Shown: positions 7,100 to 63,995 of the stretch, piece by piece
Numbering within the stretch: the first letter of the stretch is position 1
Layout: the number at the start of each line of letters is the position of its first letter
Assembly (NCBI GenBank): GCA_030427835.1
Contig: JAUICN010000013.1
Span: 16,663-80,662 of the forward strand
Length of the DNA: 64,000 nt
DNA from: Polyangia bacterium
GTDB lineage: Bacteria; Myxococcota_A; Polyangia; Polyangiales; JAUICN01
Direction of reading: 5' to 3'
Made by a program: the position numbers and the translations under genes
The notes under the pieces: model-generated
What the model was told of the DNA's origin: nothing
What the model saw: the letters and a program-made list of their open reading frames with translations, nothing else
Database searches by the model: none

Positions 7100-7219
7100 G
7101 CCAGTTCCATCCCTCAGTCACAACACCAGTTCGCTAGAAGCCGTGATCAAACGGCGAAAAAACGACCCAGGTTGAAAAAGTACGCAACTGAGTGGCGTGT
7201 CTGACCGATAAGGGAGCAC

Positions 7220-8098
7220 ATGACGATGCCCCGCCAGGTCCTGCAAGGGACCACCTACATGATAAGCCGCCGGTGCGTTGAACAACGGTTCTACTTGCAA
7301 CCCAGTGCCTGGCTCAATGCCGTTATCCTATTTCTCCTCGCCGTACTGGCTGAAATGTTTGGGATGGAAGTCCACGGTTTTACCTTCATGAGCAACCACT
7401 ATCACCTCATGATGACCGACCCCCACGGGAAAATCCCCCAGTTCATGGCACGATTCAACCGCCACTTGGCCCTCGCCGTGAAGTTCTACCACCGCATCGG
7501 AGGATGCATATTCGACCCCTGCGTCTCCTACCACGCCATGCCCCTGCTCACCCCAGAGGCGGTCCTCGACAAGCTCAGCTACATGACCCTGAACCCTGTC
7601 TCCGCTGGCCTTGTCCCCAAACCGGAGCAGTGGGAGGGCCTGAATACCTCCCCCGAACAACTCGGAACAGTTCTCCTGGAAGGGCTAAAGGTCCCTTCCT
7701 TTTTCAAACGCGTTTCCTGGGTGATTCCCAAACGATTCGTACTCACCATGCCCCCAGCCCTACGGGACCAGGACCGGGACACTGTCGTAATCACTTTGCA
7801 ACGTCTCAATGAAGACCGGCGTCGCAAGGTACGGGGCCCCTTTCGCGGGATGCAACAGGTGCACAATATCCCTGTCACCTTCCAACCAGAAACCCAGGCC
7901 CCAAACAAACCCCAGCGCATCCCCACACATTCGGCAAAAAGCACAGCCGTCTATCGCCAAGCACGTGCTTCCCTACGTGCGTTTCGCAACGCTTACCGCA
8001 ATGCCTTGCGCCATTTTCGAAACGGTCACTTCAACACACCCTTTCCTGAGGGTACCTGGTGGATGATTCACTACGGCGGCGCTTCCCTCGCTACATAG
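7220..8098 (+). CDS. REP-associated tyrosine transposase-like HUH (Y1) endonuclease, copy 1
   Basis: TYMISRRC, F.FMSNHYHL (HUH), YMTLNPV.AGLV (catalytic Tyr), C-terminal FPEGTW. SD AGGGAG upstream. Confidence 0.85.
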   Translation: MTMPRQVLQGTTYMISRRCVEQRFYLQPSAWLNAVILFLLAVLAEMFGMEVHGFTFMSNHYHLMMTDPHGKIPQFMARFNRHLALAVKFYHRIGGCIFDPCVSYHAMPLLTPEAVLDKLSYMTLNPVSAGLVPKPEQWEGLNTSPEQLGTVLLEGLKVPSFFKRVSWVIPKRFVLTMPPALRDQDRDTVVITLQRLNEDRRRKVRGPFRGMQQVHNIPVTFQPETQAPNKPQRIPTHSAKSTAVYRQARASLRAFRNAYRNALRHFRNGHFNTPFPEGTWWMIHYGGASLAT

Positions 8099-8286
8099 AG
8101 CACCCCTACACCTTGCAAGTTCCCACGGAAGCCTCTTCCCACCGCATCCGTGCGTCCACGGGCAGACACTTTTGAAAATCCTCTCCGCAGACTCACTTCC
8201 ACGGAGGCAAAACGGCAGCAATGTGCGTAACCAGAAGCTGTTCCGGTCACAAAGAGGTTGGTGCACAGGCAGCCTCGTGCCCCCAA

Positions 8287-8316
8287 TCACCCGAGTTACC
8301 CAATCAACCTGGGTGA
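8287..8316. repeat. REP-like inverted doublet (ACCCAGGTT family)
   Basis: TCACCCGAGTT-ACCCAATC-AACCTGGGTGA forms an 11-bp stem with one G-T pair and one mismatch. Confidence 0.5.
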
Positions 8317-8429
8317 GTTTGTAACAAGCGACTCGCCGGTTAGGTTTTCAATGCACAATTGGCAACGGGCCAACTCCTGGTGGAGATGACCCGCTGGGTA
8401 GGAGGATTGCCCTCCCCGGTTACCCCAGA

Positions 8430-10415
8430 CTAGTTGGCCAGGGCGGCGTCAATGGCGGCTTTGAATGCCGGGAAGGGTTGCGCCCCCTGCAGCAGTTTGC
8501 CGTTGATGAAGAAGCTGGGTGTACCGATCTGGGCACCGGCCTTGGTGACCGCCTGCTTGTCCTGATTGATGCGTGCAGCGTGGCGGTGGCTATCCAGGGC
8601 AGACTTGAACTGGGCCATGTTGATGCCTCCCACTTCCTGGGCGTACTGCTCCAGGTTGGCCCGGGAAAGGGCACGTTGGTTGGCGAACAGTTTGTCATGG
8701 TAGGCCCAGAACTTCTCATCCCCACCCTGGCGATGAACCTCCATGGAGGCCTCATGAGCAAGCTGCGCGTTTTGGTGGAACGGCAATGGGAAGTGGCGCC
8801 AAACGATGCGCACCTTGCCTGCGTACTCCTGCTTGATCTGCTGAATAGTGGGGTTCACCCGACCGCAGAATGGGCATTCAAAGTCGCTGAACTCCTGAAT
8901 CACAACCTTTGCATTCTTTGGACCGTAGGAGGGTGAGTCGTCGGTGACGGCAATGTTGTAGATCTTGTTGGGGTCCGGGCGGGCGGGCGCCTCGGCGTTG
9001 CCGCCGCCAATGGTCTGGGGCGAGGTGGCGCCATTTTTGATGCTTTCCTCATAGACCTTGGATCGGGGAGTGCCGGCTGCCACAAGCTTGTGTGCCTTTG
9101 CCAACTCCTCGTCGATGACCTTCTTGAAAGCCTCGAAGGGCTGGGCGCCCCGCAGGTTGCGACCGTTGATGAAGAAACTTGGTGTCCCGCGAGCGCCAAG
9201 CTGGGCCGCAAGCTTTTGATCCTTCTCGATGGCCGCCTGGTGCTCGTTATTGTCGATGGCGGACTTCAACTGGGCCACGTTCAGGCCAAGCTCCTGACCG
9301 TATTTCTCCAGGTCGGCACGGCTGAGGGCGGTTCGGTTGTCGAATAGCTTGTCGTGCATGGCCCAGAACTTGTCATTTCCGCCCTGGTCAAAGGCTTCCA
9401 TGGCGGTCTGATGAGCGGGGCCCGCGTTCTTGTGGAATGGCAGCGGGTTGTTGAACCACACGAATCGAACGTCGTTGCCGTATTGCTCCTTGATTTGCTT
9501 CATGGTGGGTTGCACGCGGGAGCAGAAGGGGCATTCGAAGTCGCTCACCTCAACAATGGTGACAAGCGCATCAGCTGGACCCTTGGAAGGATTGCCGTCC
9601 ACAGGAACCTTGTACACCGCGTTGGGGTCAGGCTGGGCACGGGCCTGTTGTGGTTGTTGGGGCTTGGGATCTTCGGCCTTCTCCTTGGCGTTCTTCATGA
9701 AGGCGGCGTAGAGCTGTTGGCGCTTCACACCCTTTTTGAGCAGGCCTTCCGCTGCGGCGATTTCCTCGTCGATGACTTCCTTGAACTTCTCAAAGGGCTG
9801 GGCACCGGCAAGTTTACGGCCGTTGATGAAAAACCCGGGGGTTCCGCGGGCGCCAATCTTGGAGGCAATCTGCAGGTCGGCTTGAATCACACCCATGTGA
9901 GCGTTGGAATCAAGAGCCTTCTTAAACGCTCCCATGTCAAGAGCGAGTGCCTTGGCGTGCTTCTCAAGGGTTTCACGCCCAAGGGATTTTTGGTCGCCGA
10001 AGAGTTTGTCGTGCATGGCCCAGAACTTCTTGCTGCCACCCTGCTTGAAGGCCTCGATGGAGGCCTGGTGTGCCAGGGGTGCGTCCTTATGGAAAGGAAG
10101 GGGACTGTGGCGCCAGAGAATGCGTACCTTGCCATCGTATTCCTTGAGAATGCGGGCCATGGTCGGGTTCACGCGGCTGCAGAATGGGCATTGGAAGTCA
10201 CTGAACTCCACGATGGTGACCAGCGCATCCTTCACGCCCTTCATGGGCTGGTCATCCGATACGGGAACCTTGAGGCGCTCCACGTTGTCGTCGACACCCA
10301 CGGTGACGGCTTCCTCGGCGACATCGTTGCCGGATTTTCCACCCGTGAGGTGGCCTATTAACAGGCCTCCCACAAACGCGACCAAAATCGATGCAATGGC
10401 TGAACCCTTATTCAT
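8430..10415 (-). CDS. Membrane-anchored protein with three tandem DsbA-family thioredoxin domains
   Basis: Three copies of [FV]SDF[QE]CPFC...GTP.FFING. N-terminal hydrophobic anchor. SD AAGGAG upstream. Confidence 0.9.
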   Translation of the reverse strand: MNKGSAIASILVAFVGGLLIGHLTGGKSGNDVAEEAVTVGVDDNVERLKVPVSDDQPMKGVKDALVTIVEFSDFQCPFCSRVNPTMARILKEYDGKVRILWRHSPLPFHKDAPLAHQASIEAFKQGGSKKFWAMHDKLFGDQKSLGRETLEKHAKALALDMGAFKKALDSNAHMGVIQADLQIASKIGARGTPGFFINGRKLAGAQPFEKFKEVIDEEIAAAEGLLKKGVKRQQLYAAFMKNAKEKAEDPKPQQPQQARAQPDPNAVYKVPVDGNPSKGPADALVTIVEVSDFECPFCSRVQPTMKQIKEQYGNDVRFVWFNNPLPFHKNAGPAHQTAMEAFDQGGNDKFWAMHDKLFDNRTALSRADLEKYGQELGLNVAQLKSAIDNNEHQAAIEKDQKLAAQLGARGTPSFFINGRNLRGAQPFEAFKKVIDEELAKAHKLVAAGTPRSKVYEESIKNGATSPQTIGGGNAEAPARPDPNKIYNIAVTDDSPSYGPKNAKVVIQEFSDFECPFCGRVNPTIQQIKQEYAGKVRIVWRHFPLPFHQNAQLAHEASMEVHRQGGDEKFWAYHDKLFANQRALSRANLEQYAQEVGGINMAQFKSALDSHRHAARINQDKQAVTKAGAQIGTPSFFINGKLLQGAQPFPAFKAAIDAALAN

Positions 10416-10600
10416 GACTCTCTACCTCTCCTTACACATGGAACCCGGATGGGCGTCCTAACTTCACGTGGCCAATGTTTGAATAACGATTTGGCACACG
10501 ATTGGGCACAATTGGGGCCCGTGAGTTGCGTACAAACCACGGTCGCTGCAAAAGGTCAACTGCCGAGCAGGATCGGGGGCGATCGGGGGCACCACGGAAC

Positions 10601-11233
10601 ATGAAGCGCGAACACCTGGAACAGCTGATCTATTCCCTGAAAACGCCCCTTAGGGCAGAGATTCCCCAGGTGGTGAAGGCCCAATTGGCGGATTTTGCGA
10701 AACTTGTGGCCCAGTGGAACCGGCGCATGAACCTGACCGCGGCCAAAGATAGCCAGGATCTGTGCGAGGTGCTTTTTGCGGATGCCCTGGTTTTGGCAGG
10801 CGTGGTGAGTGACTCGGCCCGGGTGGTGGACGTGGGCTCAGGGGCGGGAGCACCGGGAATTCCGCTGTTTTTGTTGCGGCAGGATCTCGAGGGGCTACTG
10901 GTAGAACCTCTTCACAAGCGATGCACGTTCCTGAGGTTCTGCCTGGCCGAGCTGGGGCTTCTGGATCGAGTGAGCGTGGCCCAGCAGTCCATCCCCACCG
11001 ACGGCCCTCCCCCGCCCCAGCACCCGGTGCCCCAGTTCAAGCCCACCGTAGCCATGTCCCGAGCCACCTTCGCCCCAGCCGACTGGCTACCCCTCGGGCA
11101 AGGCCTCCTGCCCACCGGCGCCCCCGTGGTGGTGCTAGCCAGCCAACCCCTGCAAGCCCCATCCAGCCCTAACCAAGTAATCGAATACACCTGGCCCCTG
11201 TCTGGACGACAACGTTGGTTGGGGGTTTGGTAG
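10601..11233 (+). CDS. rsmG: 16S rRNA m7G527 methyltransferase
   Basis: WNRRMNLTA, VVDVGSGAGAPGIPL, LVEP..KR..FL, SRAT. Confidence 0.85.
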   Translation: MKREHLEQLIYSLKTPLRAEIPQVVKAQLADFAKLVAQWNRRMNLTAAKDSQDLCEVLFADALVLAGVVSDSARVVDVGSGAGAPGIPLFLLRQDLEGLLVEPLHKRCTFLRFCLAELGLLDRVSVAQQSIPTDGPPPPQHPVPQFKPTVAMSRATFAPADWLPLGQGLLPTGAPVVVLASQPLQAPSSPNQVIEYTWPLSGRQRWLGVW

Positions 11234-11254
11234 GCTATTAACCCTGGAACGTTG

Positions 11255-11887
11255 CTAGTTGCGATCGGGGAGGATGCGGATGCGGCGGTTGTTGCCTTCG
11301 CCTTCGGAGCGGGTGGAGACGCCTTCGAACTCGGCAAGGAAGTTGTGGACCACGCGGCGGTCCCTGGGGGTCATGGGCTGTAAAGAGACGACCTTGCCCT
11401 GATCGATGGCCCGTTCGGCCTGACGCTCGGCAAGGGTGCAGAGGCCCTCGTCGTGGCGTTCGCGGTAGTCGCCGGAATCGATCAGGATGTGCCTGCGGCC
11501 CCGGTGGGAGCGGTTGATGTGCTTGTTTACCAGAAACTGTAGGGCGTCCAGGGTTTGGCCCTTGCGGCCGATGGCGCGACCGGAGTCAGGGCCGGAGATG
11601 TCCAACACCACTTCTTCGTCGTCGGTACGAATGGCGACGTCGGTGTCCAGGTCCATGTGGGCGAGAATGCCGTCCAGGAACTCCAGTGCTTCCTCGGCCT
11701 TGCCGTCACCGGGGTGCCCCTTGGAGGCCTCGTCGTCCCGGCTGTCGGAACGGCGGCTGGCATTGCGACGGCTGTCACTGCGACCACTGCCACTACGGCT
11801 GCTGGCATTGGGTTTGTCGTTGGTGGGGGCGTCGCCATCCACAAAGAGGGCGCCATCCATGAGGGGCTTGTCGTTATTGTCGGCCAC
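11255..11887 (-). CDS. jag: Jag/KhpB RNA-binding protein (KH + R3H)
   Basis: IGRKGQTLDALQFL, PMTPRDRRVVH, SEGEG..R. Located after yidC. Confidence 0.9.
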   Translation of the reverse strand: MADNNDKPLMDGALFVDGDAPTNDKPNASSRSGSGRSDSRRNASRRSDSRDDEASKGHPGDGKAEEALEFLDGILAHMDLDTDVAIRTDDEEVVLDISGPDSGRAIGRKGQTLDALQFLVNKHINRSHRGRRHILIDSGDYRERHDEGLCTLAERQAERAIDQGKVVSLQPMTPRDRRVVHNFLAEFEGVSTRSEGEGNNRRIRILPDRN

Positions 11888-13844
11888 GTCGTGTTCTCCG
11901 CTTGGTATTCTTTTTGTTTTTCTTGGCCAGGGTGGTTCGTTCTACCACGCTGGATGAGCGATCGTCGGTGTTGTAGTTGCCGCCGGCAAGGGCAGGTGTG
12001 CCAAGTACAGCCTCGGGAGTCTCCCCCGATTCTGTGGGCTTGTCGCCGTTTTTCTGGGGCGCCTTCTGGGCAGATTTCTCCGCTGCGGTTTTGCGGTCCA
12101 GGGCCCTGTGAATCGTTTGCTGTTGGGCCAGGCCGAGCATGCTGCTGGTGACCATGTAAAGGCACAGCCCCGCGGGCAAGAACAGCATGAATACGGTGAT
12201 CATGATGGGCATCATGTACATCATGATCTTGGCCTGGGAGGCATCCATGGTGGTGGGGGTGAGCCGTTGTTGCAGGAACATGAGCGCGCCCAGGGTAAGG
12301 GGCAGCACGTAGTAGGGGTCGGGGGCGGAGAGGTCGGTCCACCAGAGCACGAAGTTGGCGTGGTAGAGCTCCACGTTGGTGGAAAGGGAGGCGTAGAACG
12401 CAAACCACACGGGCATCTGAACCACCTGGGGCAGGCAGCCGCCGATGGGGTTGATTTTGTGTTTGCGGTAGATCTCCATCATCGCCGCGCCCTTTTTCTC
12501 CCGGTCGTCGGCGTAAAGGGCGTTGATGCGGTCGATTTCAGGCTTCACTACCCGCATGCGGGCCATGGACTGAAAGCTTTTCCAGGTGAGCGGGAACATG
12601 ACCAGGCGCACAAGGATGGTCATCAGAATGATGGCCAGGCCCCAGTTGCCCGCAAAACCGTAGACCCAAGTGAGCAGGCGTACGAGCTGCTGGGCGACCG
12701 CGGAGAACCAACCGAGGTCGATGGCACGGGAGAGTTCGTGGCCGGCAGCCTCCAGGTCGGCGGCGGACTTGGGGCCGGCGTAAATAAGCGAGCGGGACAT
12801 GTGGGTTTCGCCCGGTGGGATTTCGGTGACAGGGCTTACGAGGCCAGCGGCAAAGAGGTTGCCGTGGGGCTCGTCGACAGTGCCGCCACGGGGCTCTCCC
12901 ACAATCTGGCAACGGGCGCCGGGGGCTTCTTTTTCGGGCGCCAGGAGAATGGTGAAGAAACTGTCTTCGATTCCCACAAAACCCACCTTGCCACCGTAGC
13001 CGTGGCCCTTGGGGGCCTCTGGGGTGACGCGGACCTTTTCCTTGTCCATGCGGGTGACTTCATCGTCGTGTAGGCACAGGCCGGTGGTGATTTTAGGAGA
13101 ACGGCGGGCAAGCATGCCGCCGCCCTCGTCGGCGGTTTTGGTGTAGTGGTGGGTGCCGGTGCGGAGTTTGATCTTGCGGGGGCGGGTGGTGTGGTTGGTG
13201 ACCCGTACGGTGGACCAGGCCTGGAAGCGGTTGGTGGCGGCTTCAAGCTCGCGCACCACGGTGTAGCGGCCGTTAGTCCAACGGAGTTCCACCAGGGATT
13301 CGGACTTCTGGGTGACCTGCCACACCGCGTTCTCGGGCATGCCAATGCCCTGGACGTGGAGGCGGCCGGGGTTGTATTCGGGGCGGTCGGTGGTGACGAG
13401 GTTCAGGGGGTTGCCGTCCCCATCCACCATGCGGTCGGCGTGGAGGTGCCAGGCCTCGAAGCCTCCTGAAACGTTGCTTACGAGAGCACGGAAGCCGTTC
13501 CCCTTGAGGGGTGTGGAGGTGGGTTCCACACCCTTGGTGGCGGCCACTTGGGCTGGTGTGGTAGGCGCTGTTTCGACTGGAGTTGGTTCGACTGGAACGG
13601 GTTTGGCGGAGGAAGGCTGGGAGTCGTTCAGTTCAGGTTCTGGCGTAAAGGACTCGTCAGCCGGGGCGGAAGCGACCTCTGGGGCATCCACGGCGGGGGT
13701 AGTGGAGGTGACGTCTTCTTTTTTGTTGAAGAACGCATCGTAGCCCCAGTAACCGCCGACGACGATTAGGGAGATCAATGCCATCAGTAGGATCTGACGG
13801 GTGTTGATCGTGGATTCGTGGGGGCTGGAGGGTGGCTCGTACAT
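11874..13844 (-). CDS. yidC: Membrane protein insertase YidC
   Basis: GNWGLAII..TILVR....PL, INP.GGCLP..VQMP, DLSAPDPYYVLP, LPAGL.LY. Conserved gene context. Confidence 0.95.
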   Translation of the reverse strand: MYEPPSSPHESTINTRQILLMALISLIVVGGYWGYDAFFNKKEDVTSTTPAVDAPEVASAPADESFTPEPELNDSQPSSAKPVPVEPTPVETAPTTPAQVAATKGVEPTSTPLKGNGFRALVSNVSGGFEAWHLHADRMVDGDGNPLNLVTTDRPEYNPGRLHVQGIGMPENAVWQVTQKSESLVELRWTNGRYTVVRELEAATNRFQAWSTVRVTNHTTRPRKIKLRTGTHHYTKTADEGGGMLARRSPKITTGLCLHDDEVTRMDKEKVRVTPEAPKGHGYGGKVGFVGIEDSFFTILLAPEKEAPGARCQIVGEPRGGTVDEPHGNLFAAGLVSPVTEIPPGETHMSRSLIYAGPKSAADLEAAGHELSRAIDLGWFSAVAQQLVRLLTWVYGFAGNWGLAIILMTILVRLVMFPLTWKSFQSMARMRVVKPEIDRINALYADDREKKGAAMMEIYRKHKINPIGGCLPQVVQMPVWFAFYASLSTNVELYHANFVLWWTDLSAPDPYYVLPLTLGALMFLQQRLTPTTMDASQAKIMMYMMPIMITVFMLFLPAGLCLYMVTSSMLGLAQQQTIHRALDRKTAAEKSAQKAPQKNGDKPTESGETPEAVLGTPALAGGNYNTDDRSSSVVERTTLAKKNKKNTKRRTRRGRQ

Positions 13845-13943
13845 GGAAGAGTTGGGGCGTTCCTTGCTTGGGAACGGGTGTTGGAACAGGTGGGCGAAAA
13901 AGGCCGAGGAAAGTCTTGGTAGAGGTCTTACGGAAAGGTAGGG

Positions 13944-14183
13944 CTAGGAAGGTTGGTCCGGAGGATGAAGGGATTCGGGCGGAGGATCAAACCCCCCAGG
14001 GTGAAAAGGGTGACAACGGGCCAAACGGCGCAGGCCTAGAACCACCCCCCGGAGCACCCCAAGGCGCTGAATGCAGGTGGCGGTGTAGCTGGAGCAGGTG
14101 GGGTGAAAGCGGCATTGATAGCCCAGCCAGGGGGAGACCATGTGCTGGTACAGGCGAACCAGGGTGAGCACTGCCCTCTTCAC
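13944..14183 (-). CDS. yidD: Membrane protein insertion efficiency factor YidD
   Basis: YQ..VSP..G..CRFHPTCS.Y...RCHPFHPGG.DP. Confidence 0.95.
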   Translation of the reverse strand: MKRAVLTLVRLYQHMVSPWLGYQCRFHPTCSSYTATCIQRLGVLRGVVLGLRRLARCHPFHPGGFDPPPESLHPPDQPS

Positions 14184-14614
14184 AGGTCCTTCGTTTCAGC
14201 TCGGCGGGCGGCCCGGGCAGCGCTACTAAGCTCGTGTGTAACCTGCTCCAGGGTAAGCTCGGGGGCGCCCCGTTTGGCCACCACCACCAGATCGACTCCA
14301 GCGGGCAACTGATCGCGGTTCTTACGGTAAAACTCCCGTACCAGGCGTTTTACGCGGTTTCGGTGCACCGCACGTTTGCTCACGCGCTTGGTGACGGTGA
14401 TTCCAATGCGGCGCGCCACTGGAGGATCCCCATCGGCAGGGTTGTTCGCCAGGACCATCAGAATGAAGTGACGGGTGTGGAATTTGGCACCACCGGATTG
14501 AACCCGGAGGAACTGGGAGCGAAAGGTGAGGTGCTCGGCCTTCGGAAAGGCCTGGGACTCTGGAGCCTGGGACTCGGTAGAGAGCCCCTGGGGCGCTTTA
14601 CTTCTTGTAGACAC
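14180..14614 (-). CDS. rnpA: RNase P protein component
   Basis: [26 protein letters not shown] motif; lies between rpmH and yidD. Confidence 0.95.
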
Positions 14615-14747
14615 TCACGGCGAGCCTTTTACGGCCCTTACGGCGACGGGCGGCAAGCACCTTACGGCCGTTTTTGGTTTCCATGCGGGCACGAAAACCG
14701 TGGGTACGGAGCCTGCGAGTTCTGCTGGGTTGGTAGGTGCGCTTCAC
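14598..14747 (-). CDS. rpmH: 50S ribosomal protein L34 (absent from ORF track)
   Basis: Manual translation: [54 protein letters not shown] (49 aa). SD GGAG upstream. Confidence 0.97.
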
Positions 14748-14823
14748 GGCGATCTCCACAGCCGGCGATAAAGGGGGCCGGCGACAAAAAGGTCGCTAAA
14801 GGGAGCACGGCCGGGGGGGGCTG

Positions 14824-15540: not shown

Positions 15541-15560
15541 TAAGGGTTACGGTGTGTTAC

Positions 15561-16376: not shown

Positions 16377-16386
16377 GAATCCACAT

Positions 16387-20939: not shown

Positions 20940-21821
20940 CTAGTTCCGGTAGCTTGCTTGCAGTGGTGCTACGGATTTGAGGAAGGACTCGAGTAGGGAC
21001 TTTTCTTTTTCCAAGGCTTCCCCCGAAACCTGGGTGGGGAGCCAGTCCTGGGTGTAGGTGCGGTACAGGGAGAAGGAAGAATCTGCCCGGAGGATGGCGA
21101 CCCCAGCGCCGCCGGCTTTCTCTGCTGCGGCCGAAAACGCGGCGAACTGCCTTGTTTTTGCGTTTTTCCAACGGTCGAACATGTTGAAAGTGGTTTCGAG
21201 GGCCGAAAACGCCGTTGCCTCCGCCTCCGTCATGGTGCTCAAGGGTTTGGGCGGATTCAGGCGCCCCTCGGTAGAGTGCGTCTTCTTCCATTGGAGTACG
21301 GTGTGGGTGGCGTTGACCCAGGAAACGAACTCGTTCACGTCGCCGATGCTTTCAAGCGTGGCGTTCAGTAACCCGATTCCCGACTTTCGGAGGTCAGCCA
21401 CGGTGTCCGTTAGAATAGGAAAGAACCCGGCCGATTGCTCCGTGCTCAGGATCGAGGGGTCTGCCCAGAACGCGGTGGCGTAGTTAAAGATGTCTTCGAC
21501 GCGTAGGTGGCCCATGCCGTGGTAGCGGGAGAACCTAACGATGGCCGGATCCCACGCGAGTGGATGCCGAAGCACTGTGGGGTCCAGCTGCCGCATGGTC
21601 TCAAGAATGGCAGGGCGCTCCCATTCAAACGTACGGAGCCGGCTGCCTGTGGTTCCAATGGGTTCCAGGGGAAGTGCACTGCCGCCCTCGATGTTCCCCA
21701 CTGCCATTTGGAATGCCACCTTTGCACCCAGCTCGCGCACCGAACGAAATAGCTGGCTGGATTGGGGCGCACAGGGCTTAAGGGTGAGCTCATTGTTGAA
21801 CTGCATGTCGAGCTGGGCCAT
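20940..21821 (-). CDS. Hypothetical protein (no family recognised)
   Basis: 293-aa ORF fitting cleanly between cysS and the PP2C gene, with protein-like composition. Confidence 0.6.
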   Translation of the reverse strand: MAQLDMQFNNELTLKPCAPQSSQLFRSVRELGAKVAFQMAVGNIEGGSALPLEPIGTTGSRLRTFEWERPAILETMRQLDPTVLRHPLAWDPAIVRFSRYHGMGHLRVEDIFNYATAFWADPSILSTEQSAGFFPILTDTVADLRKSGIGLLNATLESIGDVNEFVSWVNATHTVLQWKKTHSTEGRLNPPKPLSTMTEAEATAFSALETTFNMFDRWKNAKTRQFAAFSAAAEKAGGAGVAILRADSSFSLYRTYTQDWLPTQVSGEALEKEKSLLESFLKSVAPLQASYRN

Positions 21822-21868: not shown

Positions 21869-21906
21869 CTGAAACGACCCACGTTCGAAAATTAATCAAT
21901 GATTTC
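21869..21906. repeat. Dispersed ~39-bp intergenic repeat, copy A (inverted copy at 46761-46799)
   Basis: CTGAAA-CGACCCACGTTCGAAAATTAATCAATGATTTC vs CTGAAAACAACCCAGGTTCGAAATTAAATCAATGATTTC (reverse complement of 46761-46799). Confidence 0.75.
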
Positions 21907-22076
21907 AAAATCCCAAAATCACCCAGGTTGGAATGGTGGCAAGGGTGTTTTGTGTCGAAAAGTGGTTTTCAGCATGTGTCTTATTTTGCTCCAGTGGAAC
22001 TGACCCTTAAAATCATTTGGGAAAATTGGAAAATTCGACCGCTGGATTGGAGGCTTGGGTGGCCTGGGTTGTTCGA

Positions 22077-22108: not shown

Positions 22109-22212
22109 CTAGTGTGTTGAGCAGCTGGGAGTGCGACGTGTTTGGTCCAGCTGGCTGGGGCCTTGGGTGCTCCGTGGCACGGATTGGCTCCCGTTTTCCC
22201 TGGGAATTCCGC

Positions 22213-22228
22213 TGGCACGGGGTTCGCA
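22213..22228 (+). promoter_or_regulatory. sigma54-type promoter
   Basis: TGGCACG-GGGT-TCGCA (GG-N10-GC, one mismatch in the -12 box). The -12 C is at 22227 and the ATG at 22241. Confidence 0.5.
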
Positions 22229-22240
22229 TTGTCTGGGGGT

Positions 22241-23011
22241 ATGTCTACGACGACAGATCAAGCAGTACTTACCAGCCAGGGCCTTGGGGCCACCCACGTG
22301 GGGCGGCGCTCCAACAACGAGGACGCCTTTGTGACCGACCCTATTCTGGGGTTTTACGCCGTGGCAGACGGCATGGGCGGCCACGAGGGTGGAGAGGTGG
22401 CGAGCTGGCTTGCCATTGAATCCCTCCACGGGTTTTGCATGCGTGCGGGAGCGCGATCCGCGAGCGAAGTGAGCCAGGTGACCTCACCGGGAAGTACGGT
22501 TGGGCAGGATATGATGGCCCTTGCCTTTCGCCAGGCCCACCGTTCCATTCAACGTCAACGTACTGGCCGATTGTCCCACATGGGTTCCACCGCGGCCCTG
22601 GTTTGGGTACACGGAAGCCGCGCCACCATCGCCCACATCGGCGACAGCCGGGTCTACATGAGCCGTGGCGGCGTGTTGCAACAAATGACGCGGGACCACT
22701 CCCTGGACGCGGAACTGCAGGAAGCCGGCATGGTGGCCAAGGGAATCACGGTGGTGCCCGGCCTGATTACCCGGGCCCTGGGGATCGAGGGGGACGGCGC
22801 CGCCGAGGTCACTGAAGTGGAACTCCAGGCAGGAGACCGATTTGTGATTTGTAGCGATGGCCTCACGGATGTGGTGGACGACAACATGATTCAGCAGATT
22901 CTTGATCATTCCCCCTTTGGCATCCGTGCCGACGCCCTAGTCAACGAGGCGTACCGCGCGGGTAGCCGGGACAACATCACGGTTGTGAGCATTGAAATCA
23001 AGGGTTCTTAG
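22241..23011 (+). CDS. PP2C-family Ser/Thr protein phosphatase
   Basis: THVGRR.NNEDAF, VADGMGGH.GGEVAS, HIGDSRVY, TRDHS, ITRALG, CSDGL, GSRDNIT. Confidence 0.93.
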   Translation: MSTTTDQAVLTSQGLGATHVGRRSNNEDAFVTDPILGFYAVADGMGGHEGGEVASWLAIESLHGFCMRAGARSASEVSQVTSPGSTVGQDMMALAFRQAHRSIQRQRTGRLSHMGSTAALVWVHGSRATIAHIGDSRVYMSRGGVLQQMTRDHSLDAELQEAGMVAKGITVVPGLITRALGIEGDGAAEVTEVELQAGDRFVICSDGLTDVVDDNMIQQILDHSPFGIRADALVNEAYRAGSRDNITVVSIEIKGS

Positions 23012-46597: not shown

Positions 46598-46760
46598 TTC
46601 CCTGGTTTTTCTGGATCGAGAAGAACATCGCAGGGGCATGGGAACCCCAGTTGTGGGGCCTGAACCCCACCCCCCACACCCCACCCGGGGAGCGTAGTCG
46701 CCACCCCGCCCCCCCAAAAAGCAGGTCCCGCAAACGAACCCGTACCATGCCACCTGCGCT

Positions 46761-46799
46761 GAAATCATTGATTTAATTTCGAACCTGGGTTGTTTTCAG
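46761..46799. repeat. Dispersed ~39-bp intergenic repeat, copy B; contains palindrome AAATCATTGATTT and AACCTGGGT core
   Basis: Aligns with 21869-21906 in inverted orientation with about 5 differences. Confidence 0.75.
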
Positions 46800-46801
46800 A
46801 C

Positions 46802-56151: not shown

Positions 56152-56219
56152 CGTGGGATCTAGCAGGTTGCCGCGTCCGGGGGAATTCGCCCCGTAACCC
56201 CTTTGTTTTTCGACCTGGC

Positions 56220-57887: not shown

Positions 57888-57983
57888 GGGTCTAATACGT
57901 GCCTCTCCGCAAGCGGCAAGTGTACCCTGAAATGCGGTCCATCGGGGAGTTCTTGGTGCGTAGTTCTTGCACTTCCCCCGGAC

Positions 57984-58535
57984 CTACATGCCGGAGCGGA
58001 TCTCGAAGCTGTCTGCCCGGGCCCGAAGCACAAGTCGATTATCGGCCAGTCGGCGAAACCAGCGCTCACCCTCAGGGGTTTCCACTCGGAAACTGCCTGT
58101 GTAGGTGTAGTCCACGAGAATCTCCTGGCCCGCCCCGCTGATGCTCCGGTATTTGATTTCGTAACGTACGGCCAATACCTCCTTGGCCCAGGCGTCGAGT
58201 TTTTGCTGAAGGCCTTCTCGATCAATGTCGTCATCGCCGATAGGTGTCCCGTTGTCGTCATAATAACGGTCTGAAGCAAGCGACATGAGCTCTGGAACAT
58301 TTCGGGCCTCCACGGCCTTTCGGTACAGCTCCACAAAATCCAAAATGTCTCGATTTTCACTGGTGTCCTTCACGGTCGTGTTGGGAATGTTTGCCCTTCC
58401 ACAACCGGAAACGACCAGGCACAGGGCGATGAGGGCAATGGAAAGCCCCACCGCTGGGCGAAAAGGGATCGCTGGACGAAAAGGGGTCGCTAAGAAAAGA
58501 GATGACACTGTAATTGCTCCTCGTAACTCGAACAC
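57984..58535 (-). CDS. NTF2-like-fold lipoprotein
   Basis: Lipobox VVSGC; ..Y..AVE.RN...LM.LAS..YYD..GT....D followed by beta strands. Confidence 0.65.
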   Translation of the reverse strand: MFELRGAITVSSLFLATPFRPAIPFRPAVGLSIALIALCLVVSGCGRANIPNTTVKDTSENRDILDFVELYRKAVEARNVPELMSLASDRYYDDNGTPIGDDDIDREGLQQKLDAWAKEVLAVRYEIKYRSISGAGQEILVDYTYTGSFRVETPEGERWFRRLADNRLVLRARADSFEIRSGM

Positions 58536-58719
58536 CGTTGATCAGGAACCCCACGGGGCGTGAGGCTATTCCCAAGGGTGGGGCTATCTGTAGCAGGTTT
58601 CTTGGGGGTTTCGTAGCTTTGGGATGGACCTTTTGTACCCGACCGCGGCCAGGCCTTGCGCGGCGCTTGGTAGGGACGCGCGGTTGCGCCAGTGCCCCAG
58701 GTCGGATAGGCGGTGGTTC

Positions 58720-59229
58720 ATGAGGTACCTTGTTGAGTTAGGGGATGTGTCCATGGAAGTGGACGTGCTCGTGGACGAGCAGGGGGGTACACGGATCGAG
58801 GTGGACGGCAAACCGTGGAACGGTGCGGTTCAGGAGGTGCCCGGCGGTGTATTGCTGGAGGAGGGAACCACCCGGAGACGTGTGTACGTCGCCCTGGATC
58901 CGAAACCCGGTAGCGATGAGGTGGACCTGGCCCTGGGAGAGACGCGCCTTCGGGGCCGGGTACAAAACGCCCAGCGCATCAGCCTGCAACAGGGCAAGGG
59001 AAACGCAGGTTCGGACCGGGAACTGCGGGCCCCCATGCCAGGCAGGGTGGTGAATATTACGGTTTCTGAAGGAGCGAAGGTGACAACCGGGGATTCACTC
59101 ATGGTGATCGAGGCCATGAAGATGGAGAACGAACTCAAGGCTACCCATGCGGTGAAGGTGGCCGGCATTCACGTGACGGTTGGCCAAAGTGTAGAGCGCG
59201 GTGCTCTCCTGCTGTCATTTGAAGAGTAG
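58720..59229 (+). CDS. Biotin carboxyl carrier protein
   Basis: APMPG.V, IEAMKMENE (biotinylated Lys), V..G..V..G..L. Confidence 0.9.
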   Translation: MRYLVELGDVSMEVDVLVDEQGGTRIEVDGKPWNGAVQEVPGGVLLEEGTTRRRVYVALDPKPGSDEVDLALGETRLRGRVQNAQRISLQQGKGNAGSDRELRAPMPGRVVNITVSEGAKVTTGDSLMVIEAMKMENELKATHAVKVAGIHVTVGQSVERGALLLSFEE

Positions 59230-59268
59230 AGCGTTCGAAGAGTAGGACCCTCGAAGGCTCGTGCCGGT

Positions 59269-60630
59269 CTAGGTGAGACCGAACTCTTTGATCTTGTACA
59301 ACAGCGCGCGGTGGGAGATCTCTAGGATCTTTGCGGCACGGGTGCGGTTTCCGCCCGTCTTCTCCAGGGCCCGCCGGATAAGCACTTCTTCGATGTAGCG
59401 GGTAGTCTTTTTGATAGAGAGTTCCCCGCTTGAAAGGGTTACCGCGACCGGGTCGTCTGCTTCGACCAGGCGCTCTGGAAGGTTTTCCACGGTGATGGTG
59501 TCACCATCGGCCAGTACCACGGCGCGCTCCACGGTATTCTCAAGCTCCCGTACATTGCCCGGCCAAGCGTAGCGGAGCAGCCGTTTCATGGCGGCGGACT
59601 CCAGATTGCGCACCTGGGAACCAAACCGGATGTTGCAGCGGTCCACGAAGTGACCCACCAGCAGGGGGATATCGTCGGAACGTTCACGCAGGGGGGGCAG
59701 CCGAATCTTGAGGGAGCTCAATCTGTAGAAGAGGTCCTCCCGAAAACGACCCGTGCTGACTTCCTTTTCCAGATCCCGAATGGTGGCTGCAATCACCCGG
59801 ACATCAACCAGTCGGTCGGTCTCTTCCCCGACGCGGCGCACGCGGCCTTCCTGCAGAGCGCGCACGAGCTTCACCTGCAGGTGCAGGGGTAACTCTCCCA
59901 CCTCGTCCAGGTACAGGGTTCCTTCGTGCGCCTCTTCCAGCAGACCACGTTTGTCCCGGGTGGCTTCTGTGAAGGCACCCTGAACGTACCCAAAGAGTTC
60001 GCTTTCAAGCAAGCCCTCTGGAATCGCGCTGCAGTTGACGGCCACAAAGGGTTTGGCGGCGCGGGCGCCCTGGTTGTGTGCGGCACGGGCCACAAGCTCC
60101 TTGCCTGTGCCGCTTTCGCCCTGAATGAGCAAGGTCGTCTTGTGCTCCGCGACTTTTTCAACGATGCGAAACACGGCTTGCATGGCCTCACTGCGGCCCA
60201 GCAACTCGCCAAACCGGTGTTGATCACGCACGGCCTCACGTAGGACTTTGTTCTCCTGTTGGAGGTGGTGCCGTTCGGCGGCCTTGCGCAACGCAAGCCG
60301 GATATCCTGTTCCTCAAGCGGCTTACGCAAGCAGTCGTATGCGCCCGCTTCGATGCCTGCGCGGGCAAGCTGGGAAGCGTTGGCGTCTGCCATGAGCAGC
60401 ACTGTGGCTTTGGAAGAGCGCGCCTGCACTTCCGAGCATAGCGTCGGCCCTTCCAGACCGCGCGTGGTGGCATCCGCTAGCACAAAGTCAGGGTCGAAGT
60501 TGGAGAGCAGGGCCATTGCGCGATCCATGTCCGCAGCGACCTCCACATCGTACCCATCGTTTGTTAGCCAGCTGCCCAAGGAACGCCTGACGCGCTCGTC
60601 CGCGTCGAGCACCAGGACTCGTGCTCCCAT
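59269..60630 (-). CDS. sigma54-dependent enhancer-binding response regulator (NtrC family) with atypical receiver
   Basis: [61 protein letters not shown], Fis-type HTH. Confidence 0.93.
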
Positions 60631-60951
60631 GTCCTCCAGGCCCCCTTTTTTTTCTTCGAAATCATACACGCAAAAACTGCGAAACGTTCCGATATTCCTC
60701 AGGAAATGTAACACGGGGCGGGCGGTCGTCCAAGGTTTTGTCTGGATCCTTCCTGGGAGCCGCCATGGGATCTGGGCGCAACCTTCGATATACTTAACCT
60801 TGATCCTGTGGATCCCCCGAATGGTTTGGGGTGTTTTTGGCCCTAGGGCGAGGTTGTCGGTTAGTGTGGGTTTACTCCACTCGCGGTTTGAAATTCTTGG
60901 TGTTTTTTCTACTAGCTTACCCGTTGGGGGATTTGGATCAGGAGACTTGGC

Positions 60952-62679
60952 ATGAAATCAGTTCTACGTGACCGCGCCGTTGTGGCGCTCCTTGCAATTT
61001 TTGCGGTGTATTTTCTACTGAGTTGTACCCGTCGGGACCTGCGTGCATTAACCCCCTGCACGGTTTCTGGAGTGGTGGAAAACATCCAAGTCAACACCGT
61101 CGACAAGATCGACCTTTTGGTGGTCATCGATGACTCCGGTTCCATGGATGTGGAACAATCTTCCCTCGGAGCTGGGCTTCCACGTTTGATTCGCGCACTT
61201 ACGAGCGGCGATCTGGATCAGGACAGCGTCCAAGACTTCCCACCTGCCAGCGACATCCACGTTGCTGTGGTGACGACGGACATGGGTACCGGCGGTGTCT
61301 TCAGTGCATCTGGCTCGGGTTGCGAAACCCAACCAGATCTGGGTGAAGATGCCATTTTTCAAACCACACCGGGTAGCAACGCACCGGGGACCTGCGCGTC
61401 TAGTTTTCCGAGCGTGCTCAACTTCGACGGGTCCGTCGACGATCCAGACACCTTTGCAAGCGAAGTGGAGTGCCTTGTTCGAAGGGGTACCGAGGGATGT
61501 GGACTGGAGCACCAACTTGAAGTGGCACTCAAGGCAATGACACCCAGCACCTCTTCCTTACGTTTTCGGGGTGCTTCCCAGTCTTCGGTCACGGGCCATG
61601 GCGACACATTGAATGATGGGTTTCTCAGGGAAGACGCGTTGCTTGTGACTCTTGTCGTATCAGACGAGGAAGACTGTTCCGTACAGACTTCGGAAATGAA
61701 CCTTTTCCACCCTGAACAGGACAACACGGAGTACCCGGGCCCGATCAATCTCCGTTGCATCGACTACCCAGACGCGTTGCACCCGGTGGAGCGCTATGTG
61801 GATGGATATCTGGAACTCAAGCAGAATCCTGATCTGTTCGTGTTTGCGGCGATTGTGGGTGTACCTACAGACTTGGTCGCCGATACGAGCAACATCAACT
61901 TTGATGCGATCCTTGCGGACTCCCGCATGGAGGCAAAGCCTGACGCTCTCAACCCTGAGATTCCTGCAACGTCCTGTGATGTTTCGGGCGTGGGTAAGGC
62001 CTACCCTCCCCGTCGCATTGTGCAGGTTGCGCAGTCGTTGGAAGAGGAAAAGGGATCCAACGGAATCATTCAATCCATTTGCCAATCCAACTACAACGGG
62101 GCCCTGGATGCCATCGTGGAGAAGATCGGTTCCGTGTTGGGAGGCGCCTGCCTTCCCCGTGCCCTGAGCCGCAACGAATCTGGACTGGTAAACTGTGATG
62201 TCATCGAGACCTTACCGTCGGGAACTTCTTGTAGCTCGTTGTCAGGCCGAGCGCTCGTTTCCACCAAGAAGGTGAATGGTGAAAACCGTGAGCTTTGCCG
62301 TGTGTCACAACAACCTGTGCTGGGCGGTGCCGCACCCACCGACGCTGGATGGTTCTACGACGACTTCACCACCGACACCGACAGCCGCTGCGGTACCGAA
62401 GGGCAGCGCATCGCGTATGTTGACGGAGCTAGCCCCATCACAGGCACGTCGGTGCGACTGGAGTGCTTGCAGCCCGTACAAAGCGACGCGGTAGGCATCG
62501 GCACCCCCTGTACCCCAGGTGGCGGTTCGTCTAGCAACCCCTGCAGCAACGTCGACCTCACCTGCGACAGCATCAGCAACACCTGCCAGCAGACCTGCAC
62601 CTCAGACGCAGACTGCGACTCCGGTTTCCGCTGCTCCACCAACAACTACTGCGTCAACCCCACCTGCGGCCAAACCTAA
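60952..62679 (+). CDS. vWA-like (MIDAS DDSGS) Cys-rich lipoprotein, CglB-like architecture
   Basis: Lipobox LLSC, KIDLLVVIDDSGSM..EQ, G..GCGLE..LE, FLRE.A.L....VSDEEDCS, Cys-rich tail. SD AGGAG upstream. Confidence 0.75.
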   Translation: MKSVLRDRAVVALLAIFAVYFLLSCTRRDLRALTPCTVSGVVENIQVNTVDKIDLLVVIDDSGSMDVEQSSLGAGLPRLIRALTSGDLDQDSVQDFPPASDIHVAVVTTDMGTGGVFSASGSGCETQPDLGEDAIFQTTPGSNAPGTCASSFPSVLNFDGSVDDPDTFASEVECLVRRGTEGCGLEHQLEVALKAMTPSTSSLRFRGASQSSVTGHGDTLNDGFLREDALLVTLVVSDEEDCSVQTSEMNLFHPEQDNTEYPGPINLRCIDYPDALHPVERYVDGYLELKQNPDLFVFAAIVGVPTDLVADTSNINFDAILADSRMEAKPDALNPEIPATSCDVSGVGKAYPPRRIVQVAQSLEEEKGSNGIIQSICQSNYNGALDAIVEKIGSVLGGACLPRALSRNESGLVNCDVIETLPSGTSCSSLSGRALVSTKKVNGENRELCRVSQQPVLGGAAPTDAGWFYDDFTTDTDSRCGTEGQRIAYVDGASPITGTSVRLECLQPVQSDAVGIGTPCTPGGGSSSNPCSNVDLTCDSISNTCQQTCTSDADCDSGFRCSTNNYCVNPTCGQT

Positions 62680-62706
62680 CCCTCCACCTACCCTGCAGTT
62701 TTCACT

Positions 62707-62778
62707 CTACCCAGGTTAGAGAAGGGCCACCGGGGGCAAACGCTACTCAGGTTAGAGAAGGGGCACCGGGGGCAAACG
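62707..62778 (+). repeat. 36-bp direct tandem repeat x2 containing ACCCAGGTT hairpin core
   Basis: CTACCCAGGTTAGAGAAGGGCCACCGGGGGCAAACG / CTACTCAGGTTAGAGAAGGGGCACCGGGGGCAAACG (2 mismatches, no spacer). Confidence 0.9.
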
Positions 62779-62972
62779 TGCAAGAACGGGAGACTGGAGT
62801 CCGCTTGCACGGCCATATTCGAGTGAGAGCAGAGGGGAGAAGGGGCCGAAAAGGTAAGGGAGGGCCTGAAAACCTTAGTAGGGGTGCGCCATGAGCCGTT
62901 TTGCCAGATTAAAGACGCACCTGTGCGGTCCCACGTGAATCGTAGGTGCAGTCCGGGTGTTGTACTGAAGCC

Positions 62973-63860
62973 TCAAGCGCAGGCGGGTGGGGGGAGATGG
63001 CCATAGTGGTGAAGCCGCCACAGCCAGGTGCCTTCGGGAAAGGCAGAGGTGTCGCCGAAACGTCGGAATCGGTCGAGGGCGAGACGGTAGGCCCGATAAA
63101 ACTCTTGCAAACGCTGCAGAGCCTGTCGGTAGATGGAGGGCGAGGATGCCGCCACGACGGGAACCTTGGCTCCCGGGGTCTCAGGGGTGTGGGGCCGGTC
63201 GGTGAAGCGACTCCGGAGCACACGGCGCATGCCTAGGGCGGGGCCGGTGAGGGTGCTCTGGAGTTGGTGTATGCGTTGCTGTACGGCATCCACCACAGCA
63301 TCTCGGCCCATGGCACAAAGCACAGGAGGAAGGGTGAGGGTCAGGGTGAGGGGCTTCTCGTTGGGCCTGGGACGAAAGTACACCTTGGGGCGGGTAAGGT
63401 GGGTATCGACCACCGTGCCCAAGTGCTCGGGAAGGGACAGGGCCCCTTGCCATTGGTAGGGCTGTTTGACGAGACGGGCAGACACGGGGTTCATGCAGAG
63501 GTAGGCCAGCTTATCGAGCACGGCCCCCTCGTCTTCGAGTGGCAACATGTGGTAGCTGCCCGCCTCAAAGACCGACCCCCGTATCTTTCGGAGGGCCTTG
63601 AGGTACCGGGCCAACAGGAAATCAAGGCGGTGCATGAATAGGGGCAACTTCCCGAACACGTCCGTCAGGTGCAGGTGGTAGTGGTTTCCCATGAGCACAA
63701 ACCCATGGACCTCCACCCCGTAACGGCGCTTGCACTCCGCCAACAGGTACCGGAAGGCTTCGTTGAGCTCCGGGGCAGGCAATAGGTAGAACCGCCGGTC
63801 CCAACACCTTCGGGTTACGAACAGGGTTTGGCCAGCAACGATACGACGTGGATTACTCAT
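62973..63860 (-). CDS. REP-associated tyrosine transposase-like HUH (Y1) endonuclease, copy 2
   Basis: FVTRRC..RRFYL.P, VLMGNHYHL, YLCMNPVSA.LV, FPEGTW. Colinear with copy 1 but clearly diverged. Start revised to ATG 63860. Confidence 0.85.
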   Translation of the reverse strand: MSNPRRIVAGQTLFVTRRCWDRRFYLLPAPELNEAFRYLLAECKRRYGVEVHGFVLMGNHYHLHLTDVFGKLPLFMHRLDFLLARYLKALRKIRGSVFEAGSYHMLPLEDEGAVLDKLAYLCMNPVSARLVKQPYQWQGALSLPEHLGTVVDTHLTRPKVYFRPRPNEKPLTLTLTLPPVLCAMGRDAVVDAVQQRIHQLQSTLTGPALGMRRVLRSRFTDRPHTPETPGAKVPVVAASSPSIYRQALQRLQEFYRAYRLALDRFRRFGDTSAFPEGTWLWRLHHYGHLPPPACA

Positions 63861-63953
63861 GCCCGGGTATCGGACAGGCCCTCCCCCAGTTGCGTCTACC
63901 ACCCCATTTTTCTACCCACACCTATCCCCCACCTATGTTTTTATTCCCTTTTT

Positions 63954-63995
63954 TTCTACCCTGGGTAGAAACCACAATCGGGTGAGAGAAGGGCC
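63954..63995. repeat. REP-like hairpin and partial copy of the 62707 repeat upstream of RAYT copy 2
   Basis: TTCTACC-CTG-GGTAGAA hairpin (63954-63970) and GGGTGAGAGAAGGGCC (about 63980-63995), similar to AGGTTAGAGAAGGGCC. Confidence 0.55.

Follow-up and report, generated by a model that had tools for sequence, protein, structure and literature searches.

The window studied here, a stretch of 64,000 nucleotides from a Polyangia bacterium (GenBank assembly GCA_030427835.1; C23:16663-80662), contains two genes, T1 and T2, that encode proteins of the Y1/HUH class, each with copies of the 9-nt word ACCCAGGTT or close variants of it on both sides. The genome comprises 3.32 Mb in 30 contigs and is rated 98% complete. 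An earlier note on the window had described the two proteins as colinear but diverged, with a motif copy on either side of each gene and without terminal inverted repeats (TIRs) of the insertion sequence type. It had proposed a myxobacterial class of domesticated REP-associated tyrosine transposase (RAYT) with a distinct type of repetitive extragenic palindrome (REP). We found both open reading frames (ORFs) intact, with products 42% identical over their whole length (E value of 2e-64), and the flanking motif copies are present as described. The start of T2, the ATG at 63860, is backed by family alignments and by a conserved upstream motif, GCAAC (63893-63889)-N16-CGATA (63872-63868). The parts of the two units, with the terminal repeats located by inverted-repeat search, are as follows.

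7165..8314, + strand: T1 unit, 1150 bp, with perfect 11-bp inverted repeats and one Y1/HUH gene
7165..7175, + strand: left TIR of T1, ACCCAGGTTGA
7184..7219, + strand: T1 leader with promoter-like GCAAC-N17-CGATAAGGGAGCAC, directly before the ATG
7220..8098, + strand: T1 gene, encoding a 292-aa Y1/HUH protein with a family-specific C-terminal half
8287..8314, + strand: right end of T1, a degenerate inner copy TCACCCGAGTT followed by the terminal repeat TCAACCTGGGT (8304-8314)
62706..64000, - strand: T2 unit, running 1-2 nt beyond the end of the window (~64001)
62706..62723, + strand: outer unit of the right-end terminal repeat of T2, TCTACCCAGGTTAGAGAA
62973..63860, - strand: T2 gene, encoding a 295-aa Y1/HUH protein
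63952..63969, + strand: left-end inverted repeat of T2, a near-perfect palindrome TTTTCTACCCTGGGTAGA with a predicted single-stranded DNA (ssDNA) fold of -6.0 kcal/mol (z score of -1.5)

Contrary to the earlier note, both genes lie between inverted repeats. T1 has a perfect 11-bp pair, and T2 has an 18-nt pair (62706-62723 and 63952-63969) at 89% identity. The right end of T1, at 8287..8314, forms an imperfect inverted doublet (ssDNA fold of -5.4 kcal/mol; z score of -1.3), and the right end of T2 in the window copy has a second 37-nt tandem unit, which carries ACTCAGGTT at 62745-62753. At the left boundary of T2, a multicopy element of the IS3 family (orfA start MNGSGKRYTAEFREEAVRL) abuts the unit at C23:80664-80789 and breaks the assembly; the same element is found at the ends of C8, C21, and C9. 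Paralogues of T1 on C30 and C29, with 72 to 73% identity, have the same ends, and the C30 paralogue has the same perfect 11-bp inverted pair. In all six paralogues of the group formed by T1, C27, and C6, ACCCAGGTT stands about 50 nt before the ATG and AACCTGGGT stands 210 to 240 nt after the stop codon. The word ACCCAGGTT is not its own reverse complement and its copies are consistently inverted, which excludes a target-site duplication as their origin. ACCCAGGTT is the core of the TIRs that bound the Y1 units.

The enzyme class named in the earlier note held up. The catalytic residues of T1 are H60-Y61-H62 for the HUH motif and Y121 in YMTLNP; the tyrosine motif of T2 is YLCMNP. In an alignment of 32 members, NHYHL and Y---NP are conserved, with Y121 invariant and N125 present in at least 90%. 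Both proteins miss the cutoffs of the curated models, with 16.4 (T1) and 14 (T2) bits against 23 for Pfam PF01797 (Y1_Tnp) and 33.7 (T1) and 45.9 (T2) bits against 80 for NCBIfam NF047646 (REP_Tyr_transpos). The family profile, when compared with the sequences of the Protein Data Bank (PDB), matched Escherichia coli TnpA_REP (4ER8) best (E value of 6.8e-7), with ISDra2 and IS200-type proteins at 1e-4 or weaker. An AlphaFold2 model of T1 had a predicted local distance difference test score of 92.6 and a predicted template modeling score (pTM) of 0.89, and its top Foldseek match was again 4ER8, with a root mean square deviation of 2.1 Å over 138 columns. Profile and predicted fold thus support placing T1 and T2 in the RAYT/TnpA_REP branch of the Y1 HUH enzymes.

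Residues ~146-292 of T1 are a family-specific extension, modeled as two long helices and short strands. No Pfam family was found in the C-terminal halves of 23 members, with none of Bac_DnaA_C, HTH_23, and HTH_28 at E values of ≤1; these three were also missing from full-length T1 and T2. No fold in the PDB matched the C-terminal half, which folds poorly in isolation (pTM of 0.41). We therefore rejected a separable DNA-binding domain and regard this half as an extension packed on the core. The full-length profile matches 2,292 clusters at 50% identity (E value of ≤1e-30), and nothing outside the present genome is closer to T1 than 35 to 40%. The next-nearest relatives retrieved (e.g., L051) have the classical combination of Y1_Tnp, at 35 to 59 bits, and Bac_DnaA_C.

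The genome holds many more such genes, which is at odds with domesticated single-copy RAYTs. By tblastn, at least nine Y1 loci were found, many of them cut by contig ends, which overlap by 127 nt there. The total over subfamilies is at least 14 copies in about eight subfamilies, with at least one remnant. Copy numbers were taken from Logan unitig depths in a public run that contains the organism. T1 is single copy, at a unitig depth of 13.2x on a contiguous 24-kb contig. Four subfamilies have two or three identical copies with different flanks.

C6-type: 1278 nt, 34.2x against 13x in the flanks; three copies with three different left flanks
T2-type: 1252 nt (62748-63999), 23.4x against 11.9-14.8x; two copies with two continuations at each end
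C30-type: 1261 nt, 22.7x against 11-14x; two copies
C14-type: 1046 nt, 20x against 11.4x; two copies

Some junctions could be placed to the base. On the left side of the C30-type pair, identity ends exactly at the outer A of ACCCAGGTT, and the unitig branch point falls on the same base. At the right junction of the T2-type copies (compared with C17 and C15), identity ends right after AACCTGGGT; the copy at the start of C15 has one end unit only. Since the motif marks the point at which copies begin or cease to be identical, it travels with the unit. A T2-type remnant was noticed at C18:249386-249543, in which similarity runs from the left end through the promoter-like motif into about 25 codons and is then lost. 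Among 31 genomes of the order, 15 have the Y1 family; each of these has 1 to 17 matches, some of them fragments or interrupted by stop codons. This is the pattern of an insertion sequence and not of a housekeeping-like RAYT. We consider it likely that T1 and T2 are Y1 units that are bounded by TIRs and have moved recently, and that orphan copies of their end sequence have spread as well.

It could be argued that the units were copied passively, by segmental duplication or as cargo of another element such as the IS3-family element beside T2, and that the Y1 protein has a nontranspositional role. The IS3-like multicopy element does directly abut the left end of T2, the identity of the C30-type pair extends more than 110 nt past its right repeat, and no target-site duplications were seen at the available junctions (C6-, C30-, and T2-type). 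However, each of the four subfamilies is a discrete gene-centered unit of 1046 to 1278 nt, most ends have their junction at the motif or within 8 nt of it, and only one unit neighbors the IS3 element. We consider passive copying very improbable.

We next consider the distribution of the word itself. Coding and noncoding DNA were separated with a simple codon-usage gene caller that we wrote, which leaves about 10% of the genome noncoding. The window copies are listed below.

7165, + strand: exact ACCCAGGTT, between called genes
8306, - strand: exact ACCCAGGTT, between called genes
21921, + strand: exact ACCCAGGTT, between called genes
46782, - strand: exact ACCCAGGTT, between called genes
62709, + strand: exact ACCCAGGTT, between called genes
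2102 (2102..2110, - strand), 21027, 24570, and 56450: exact ACCCAGGTT inside called genes, without the extended AAAACG...CG context
21877: one-mismatch variant ACCCACGTT
62745: one-mismatch variant ACTCAGGTT
63958: one-mismatch variant ACCCAGGGT (minus strand)

The five intergenic sites and the three variants of the earlier note were all recovered; to its three coding copies a fourth has to be added, at 21027, which had been overlooked. The nine exact copies on both strands of the window compare with 0.92 expected, and none of 100 dinucleotide-preserving shuffles reached nine. The four coding copies are probably chance copies, and one-mismatch matches as a class are mostly noise in the window (39 found against 21 expected). 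In the whole genome there are 125 exact copies, 59 of which lie in the noncoding ~10%, a density about 8-fold that of coding DNA. Three hundred permuted 9-mers of the same composition had a mean of 2.1 intergenic copies and a maximum of 10. The intergenic enrichment is thus real, and the most abundant intergenic 10-mer of the genome is GACCCAGGTT.

When the motif is written ACCCAGGKT, 80 intergenic sites are found: 22 mark the ends of Y1 units, 20 belong to a composite module described below, 6 consist of the first site of that module plus its box, and the remaining 32 stand alone or in tandem and in many cases read AAAACGACCCAGGTTCG. The roughly 58 copies away from Y1 genes include solo sites, tandem pairs, and the two sites of the 15-copy module. 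By spacer type they fall into 32 tandem, 14 convergent, and 12 divergent intergenic spacers, about as the background of spacer length predicts, which argues against a purely promoter-linked site. The related word CCCAGGTTCGA occurs 22 times in the 3.3-Mb genome, compared with mostly 0.2 to 1 per Mb in 30 relatives from the same order. Among these relatives, the enrichment and expansion of the motif are lineage specific and confined to the present genome.

The bases at the two positions on each side of the 9-mer are complementary in 44/76 and 53/76 sites, against 27 and 39 expected, with pairs of the G-C, C-G, and T-A types. Complementarity ends there, and the motif is accordingly a 13-nt imperfect palindrome, NN-ACCCAGGTT-N'N', with a fixed C.T mismatch. 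The hairpins of the earlier note are present as sequence palindromes, but their predicted stability as ssDNA is weak: folds of the motif range from -0.5 to -6 kcal/mol, no better than shuffles (z scores of -1.5 to +1.7). The motif has no foot of the GTAG/GGAG type.

In other genomes, the repeat beside the gene differs with the protein. Homologues in metagenome-assembled genomes (MAGs) of Myxococcales, with 36 to 40% identity, are preceded by cttCCCAGGTTCGAtt and followed by its complement, and these copies often form arrays of two to six. In the homologue L007 the inverted pair is perfect over 19 nt and contains CCCAGGTTCGA. More distant homologues have other inverted flank repeats, such as the arrays of a different 19-nt pair in L020. 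The flanks of Myxococcota relatives therefore carry the same or codiverged motifs, and codivergence of motif and protein is what would be expected of an enzyme and its substrate. Within a related MAG clade, three groups of genes are syntenic across species, with 80 to 92% DNA identity in the flanks and 81 to 93% identity of the proteins, and the 13-mer occurs only one to five times per genome, mostly at the locus. This indicates that the family is not mobile everywhere; it includes fixed, locus-confined TIRtron-like members elsewhere and expanding members in the present genome. In two of the Myxococcales MAGs (L007:2385-2681 and L009), the inverted repeats also enclose a small ORF of the CPxCG zinc-ribbon type downstream of the Y1 gene, which has no counterpart in the 210- to 240-nt 3' region of the window units. 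In the present genome, C3:33299-33847 (L006:1300-1848) encodes a short, canonical RAYT-like Y1 protein of 182 aa that passes the Pfam cutoff. On each side of the gene stand two copies, four in all, of a perfect 22- to 26-nt palindrome, AATTGTTTCACGTGAAACAATT, that occurs nowhere else in the genome, a locus-confined layout of the REPtron/TIRtron kind that contrasts with the dispersed ACCCAGGTT.

These results can be set against a classical REP/RAYT system, in which nonmobile, domesticated RAYTs disperse a hairpin REP, typically as inverted doublets (REPINs), for the benefit of the host. The fold and the motifs are of the RAYT class, the genes are flanked by their own motif, sometimes in arrays, syntenic and apparently vertically inherited orthologues occur in the related MAG clade, 59 exact motif copies are intergenic, and the two positions that flank the 9-mer on either side show significant complementarity. 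However, the genes are multicopy here, with identical copies at different sites, and have TIRs; the motif is a 13-nt palindrome without the GTAG/GGAG foot, with hairpins no better than shuffles; its copies number tens and not hundreds, and its doublets in modules are direct; and in the syntenic clade it is nearly confined to the locus. We consider a classical REP/RAYT system quite unlikely, and the distinct REP type proposed earlier is not borne out; the dispersed copies also do not appear to form REPIN-type inverted doublets. The neighbors of the dispersed copies are also not specifically orphan or accessory genes, as had been suggested; one encodes a PP2C phosphatase and others have no Pfam family.

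One exact intergenic site of the window outside the Y1 units belongs to a composite module and another to a partial copy of it.

21871..22044, + strand: window copy of the module, one of 15 in the genome (nhmmer)
21877: site A, ACCCACGTT
21896-21908: box, TCAATGATTTCAA
21921: site B, ACCCAGGTT
21952: GTGTCGAA
21976: GTGTCTTA
22007-22019: inverted box
22034-22042: TTCGACCGC
46756..46800, - strand: solo site A plus box (AAAACAACCCAGGTTCGAAATTAAATCAATGATTTCAG), with the rest of the module missing

The order in the module is site A, box, a variable spacer, site B, a core of two direct 7- to 8-mers, the inverted box, and an inverted 7-mer, over about 175 to 230 nt (other copies are, e.g., at C23:4203, C7:69702, C27:246358, and C18:319525). 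Sites A and B have the same orientation and are direct repeats. The module has three covarying words of 6 to 8 nt; its 7-mers covary by subtype (GTCGAA/TTCGAC, GGCGAC/GTCGCC, and GGCAAG/CTTGTC), and the pairings interleave as in a pseudoknot. At its left end, the C27-type Y1 unit carries the identical 24-mer that site A forms with its A-rich flank, which is also the context of the solo site at 46756..46800. Twelve of the 15 modules point to the next gene, 30 to 136 nt away, and the window module lies upstream of the PP2C gene at 22142-23011. BLAST found no module in the 30 relatives from the order.

Several assignments for the module were tried and rejected. For a structured RNA, at the module or the dispersed sites, there were no Rfam hits at the gathering threshold in the window, and the fold of the module core did not surpass shuffles (z score of +1.08). 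Neither a sigma-70 promoter nor a terminator was found in the module, and inspection by eye gave no consistent match to a sigma-54 -24/-12 element. The downstream genes do not form a regulon; they are unrelated and include genes for PP2C, a low-molecular-weight tyrosine phosphatase, a Ser/Thr kinase, an aldolase, an outer membrane protein, and others. The module does not have the consistent right-hand inverted motif copy of a miniature inverted-repeat transposable element, and it has no homology, beyond the motif, to the 3' noncoding part of the Y1 units. Two paralogous nuclease-like ORFs, C27:245415-246269 and C18:319501-320455, start inside a Y-type and an X-type module, respectively, with about 17 module-derived codons at their beginning. 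Read by eye, their products appear to combine a YhcG_N-like N terminus with an SNase-like C terminus.

The modules bear on another explanation, that ACCCAGGTT is a host site (e.g., an operator for a transcription factor, part of a promoter, or a site for nucleoid proteins or recombination), which Y1 units target or have acquired, and that the dispersed copies are independent of the transposase. A short word with dyad symmetry is typical of sites for dimeric DNA-binding proteins, the 12 co-oriented modules stand 30 to 136 nt from a gene, the outer flanks of the left ends resemble the A-rich flank of the solo sites (AAAACG followed by ACCC), and an unrelated operator-like palindrome family, ATTATCTGCGCGGCAGAAT, has about 40 copies in the same genome. 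Insertion sequences that target REP-like palindromes are also known. Against this explanation, the copies around every unit are inverted, as a target duplication of an asymmetric word would not be, and the motif coincides with the limits of identity between unit copies. Elsewhere, different proteins of the family have different motifs, most copies of which stay in the gene flanks. Convergent spacers hold sites as often as their length predicts, and both the enrichment and the module are missing from the 30 relatives. A host site is, in our judgment, unlikely. The ATTATCTGCGCGGCAGAAT repeat has the form TTCTGC-N-ATTATCTGCGCGGCAGAAT-N-TTTCTGC with an inner dyad TCTGC-GCG-GCAGA, is intergenic (e.g., C15:211894, C22:172202, and C5:16267), and is often found in tandem pairs about 36 to 42 nt apart. 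We rejected it as a part of the ACCCAGGTT system; it is only occasionally found beside ACCCAGGKT sites and is otherwise unrelated.

Among published classes, the layout of T1 and T2 is best fitted by TIRYT/TIRtron and not by REP/RAYT. These names denote RAYT-like genes flanked by inverted repeats and the units that they form, and some of their TIRs have given rise to moderately abundant repeat families of singles, dimers, and clusters (Di Nocera et al. 2013, PMC3733652). Quentin et al. 2018 (PMC6006769) equated most TIRYTs with TnpA_Y1 subclass 2.1, which has a C-terminal helix-turn-helix-like domain and TIRs with GGGGWSAS; the string "Myxococc" is absent from the main text of their paper. This subclass corresponds to group 1 of the RAYTs in Bertels et al. 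2017. Like TIRYTs, T1 and T2 are RAYT-like Y1/HUH genes with the conserved HUH and tyrosine, have TIRs and no GTAG REPs, and have a repeat that is also found elsewhere as singles, dimers, and clusters, with several such genes per genome and own ends for each. Unlike most TIRYTs, their ends are ACCCAGGTTGA or CTACCCAGGKTAGA without GGGGWSAS, a majority but nonobligatory TIR motif, their C-terminal half is a different one, and some units occur in multiple identical copies with mapped junctions. With subclass 2.1 they share Y---NP, a long protein with a C-terminal extension, gene flanks free of REP hairpins, and occurrence in a wide range of taxa, but they lack Bac_DnaA_C, HTH_23, and HTH_28 and score only 14 to 16 bits for Y1_Tnp, compared with 35 to 59. 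Class 2 of TnpA_Y1 has been described as low copy with divergent copies, whereas at least 14 copies, with identical ones in four subfamilies, are present here. By the operational definition the elements are TIRYT/TIRtrons; they are multicopy and differ from subclass 2.1 in both domain and terminal motif.

The REPtron of E. coli (TnpA_REP/RAYT, 4ER8) offers the best match for the catalytic domain and, likewise, a gene bracketed by an inverted, intergenic-enriched palindromic motif. It differs in the GTAG foot and stable hairpin, which the present motif lacks, in the length of the repeat (20 to 40 nt versus 13 nt), and in its hundreds of copies versus tens (about 80 sites, strongly intergenic, with the pairs in the module direct); the gene here is also multicopy and apparently moves with its ends. 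IS200/IS605 elements (IS608 and ISDra2) share the Y1 HUH core and the small single-gene multicopy unit, with fragments and pseudogenes among the relatives. However, they have no TIRs but like subterminal hairpins on one strand at both ends, in contrast to the inverted ends here, and the tyrosine motif here is of the RAYT class.

On this basis T1 and T2 would be members of a family of multicopy mobile units of about 1.05 to 1.3 kb, each with one RAYT-like Y1/HUH gene of about 290 codons. The enzyme might recognize the 5'-ACCCAGGTT-3' strand, namely the top strand of the left end and the bottom strand of the right one, and might nick at or just outside ACCCAGGTT and so move the unit. The roughly 58 gene-distant copies would then be orphan or duplicated ends, left behind or spread by the same activity.

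Several points weigh against such mobile units. Boundaries do not always coincide with the motif: the C6-type copies start 8 nt outside the variant motif and end 6 nt past the motif, the T2 repeated unit reaches about 31 nt outside its left palindrome, to ~64001, and the C30-type overhang and the lack of target-site duplications have been mentioned. Known Y1 enzymes act on ssDNA hairpins, whereas the ends here fold weakly, and we know of no established mechanism for a Y1 enzyme on inverted repeats. The syntenic genes and locus-confined 13-mer of the related MAG clade also speak for a fixed state in that clade. For the module, which lacks the right-hand inverted motif, the tie to the transposase consists only of shared words of 9 to 24 nt. 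The intergenic share of the motif depends on our home-made gene caller. Finally, mobility is deduced from identical copies with different flanks in one metagenome data set: over the window, the contigs of the runs X1 (2023, biofloc metagenome) and X2 (2021, metagenome) agree in length and depth and are identical, so that the two runs probably represent a single data set deposited twice and should not count as independent support. No presence/absence polymorphism of T1 was visible between these two runs, with their identical contigs and probably single origin, and an exact-protein look-up of a gene flanking T1 gave no match.

Ahead of the Y1 genes there is a further conserved element. GCAAC-N16/17-CGATA spacing precedes all Y1 genes of the genome and the homologues L007 to L015. 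In its wider form, (A)CGCAACTG-N11-12-CCGATAAGGGGGC, it stands directly before the ATG, often without room for a leader, and has about 28 intergenic sites in the genome. It also precedes the short canonical Y1 gene and at least 12 unrelated genes, including a DprA-like gene, an FHA/sigma-54 activator, and a TPR protein. The GCAAC/CGATA leader is a putative promoter, and it may represent an alternative-sigma promoter class giving leaderless mRNAs.

The observation behind the earlier note, a dispersed and strongly intergenic motif linked to two transposase genes, is thus confirmed in part, being real and significant with the corrections given above; its reading is partly supported, right on the enzyme class and the link of gene and motif and wrong on the kind of system. 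A wider proposal, which is possible but which we put forward tentatively, is that an uncurated RAYT-like branch of about 2,300 clusters, with its own C-terminal half for which there is no Pfam model, drives true transposition of short-TIR units and seeds REP-like orphan ends, including the 15-copy module found 5' of unrelated genes. Few transposase-like genes are as common in bacteria as those for RAYT/TIRYT proteins. If the proposal is true, the units would be the first sequence-level evidence of an autonomously mobile TIRYT-type element and would be intermediate between an insertion sequence and a REP/RAYT system that has been domesticated. They would provide defined ends for testing how a single-strand-specific Y1 enzyme works on inverted repeats, presumably on opposite strands at the two ends, and with intact genes, mapped ends of 11 to 18 bp, and several identical copies, the genome offers unusually clean test substrates. 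For annotation in this lineage, intergenic words of the ACCCAGGTT type, like the 15-copy module, are probably repeat derived and should not be taken as regulatory sites without evidence. That the same family is fixed, syntenic, and single copy in one myxobacterial clade and expanding and multicopy in another bears on the origin of REP/RAYT systems from insertion sequences.

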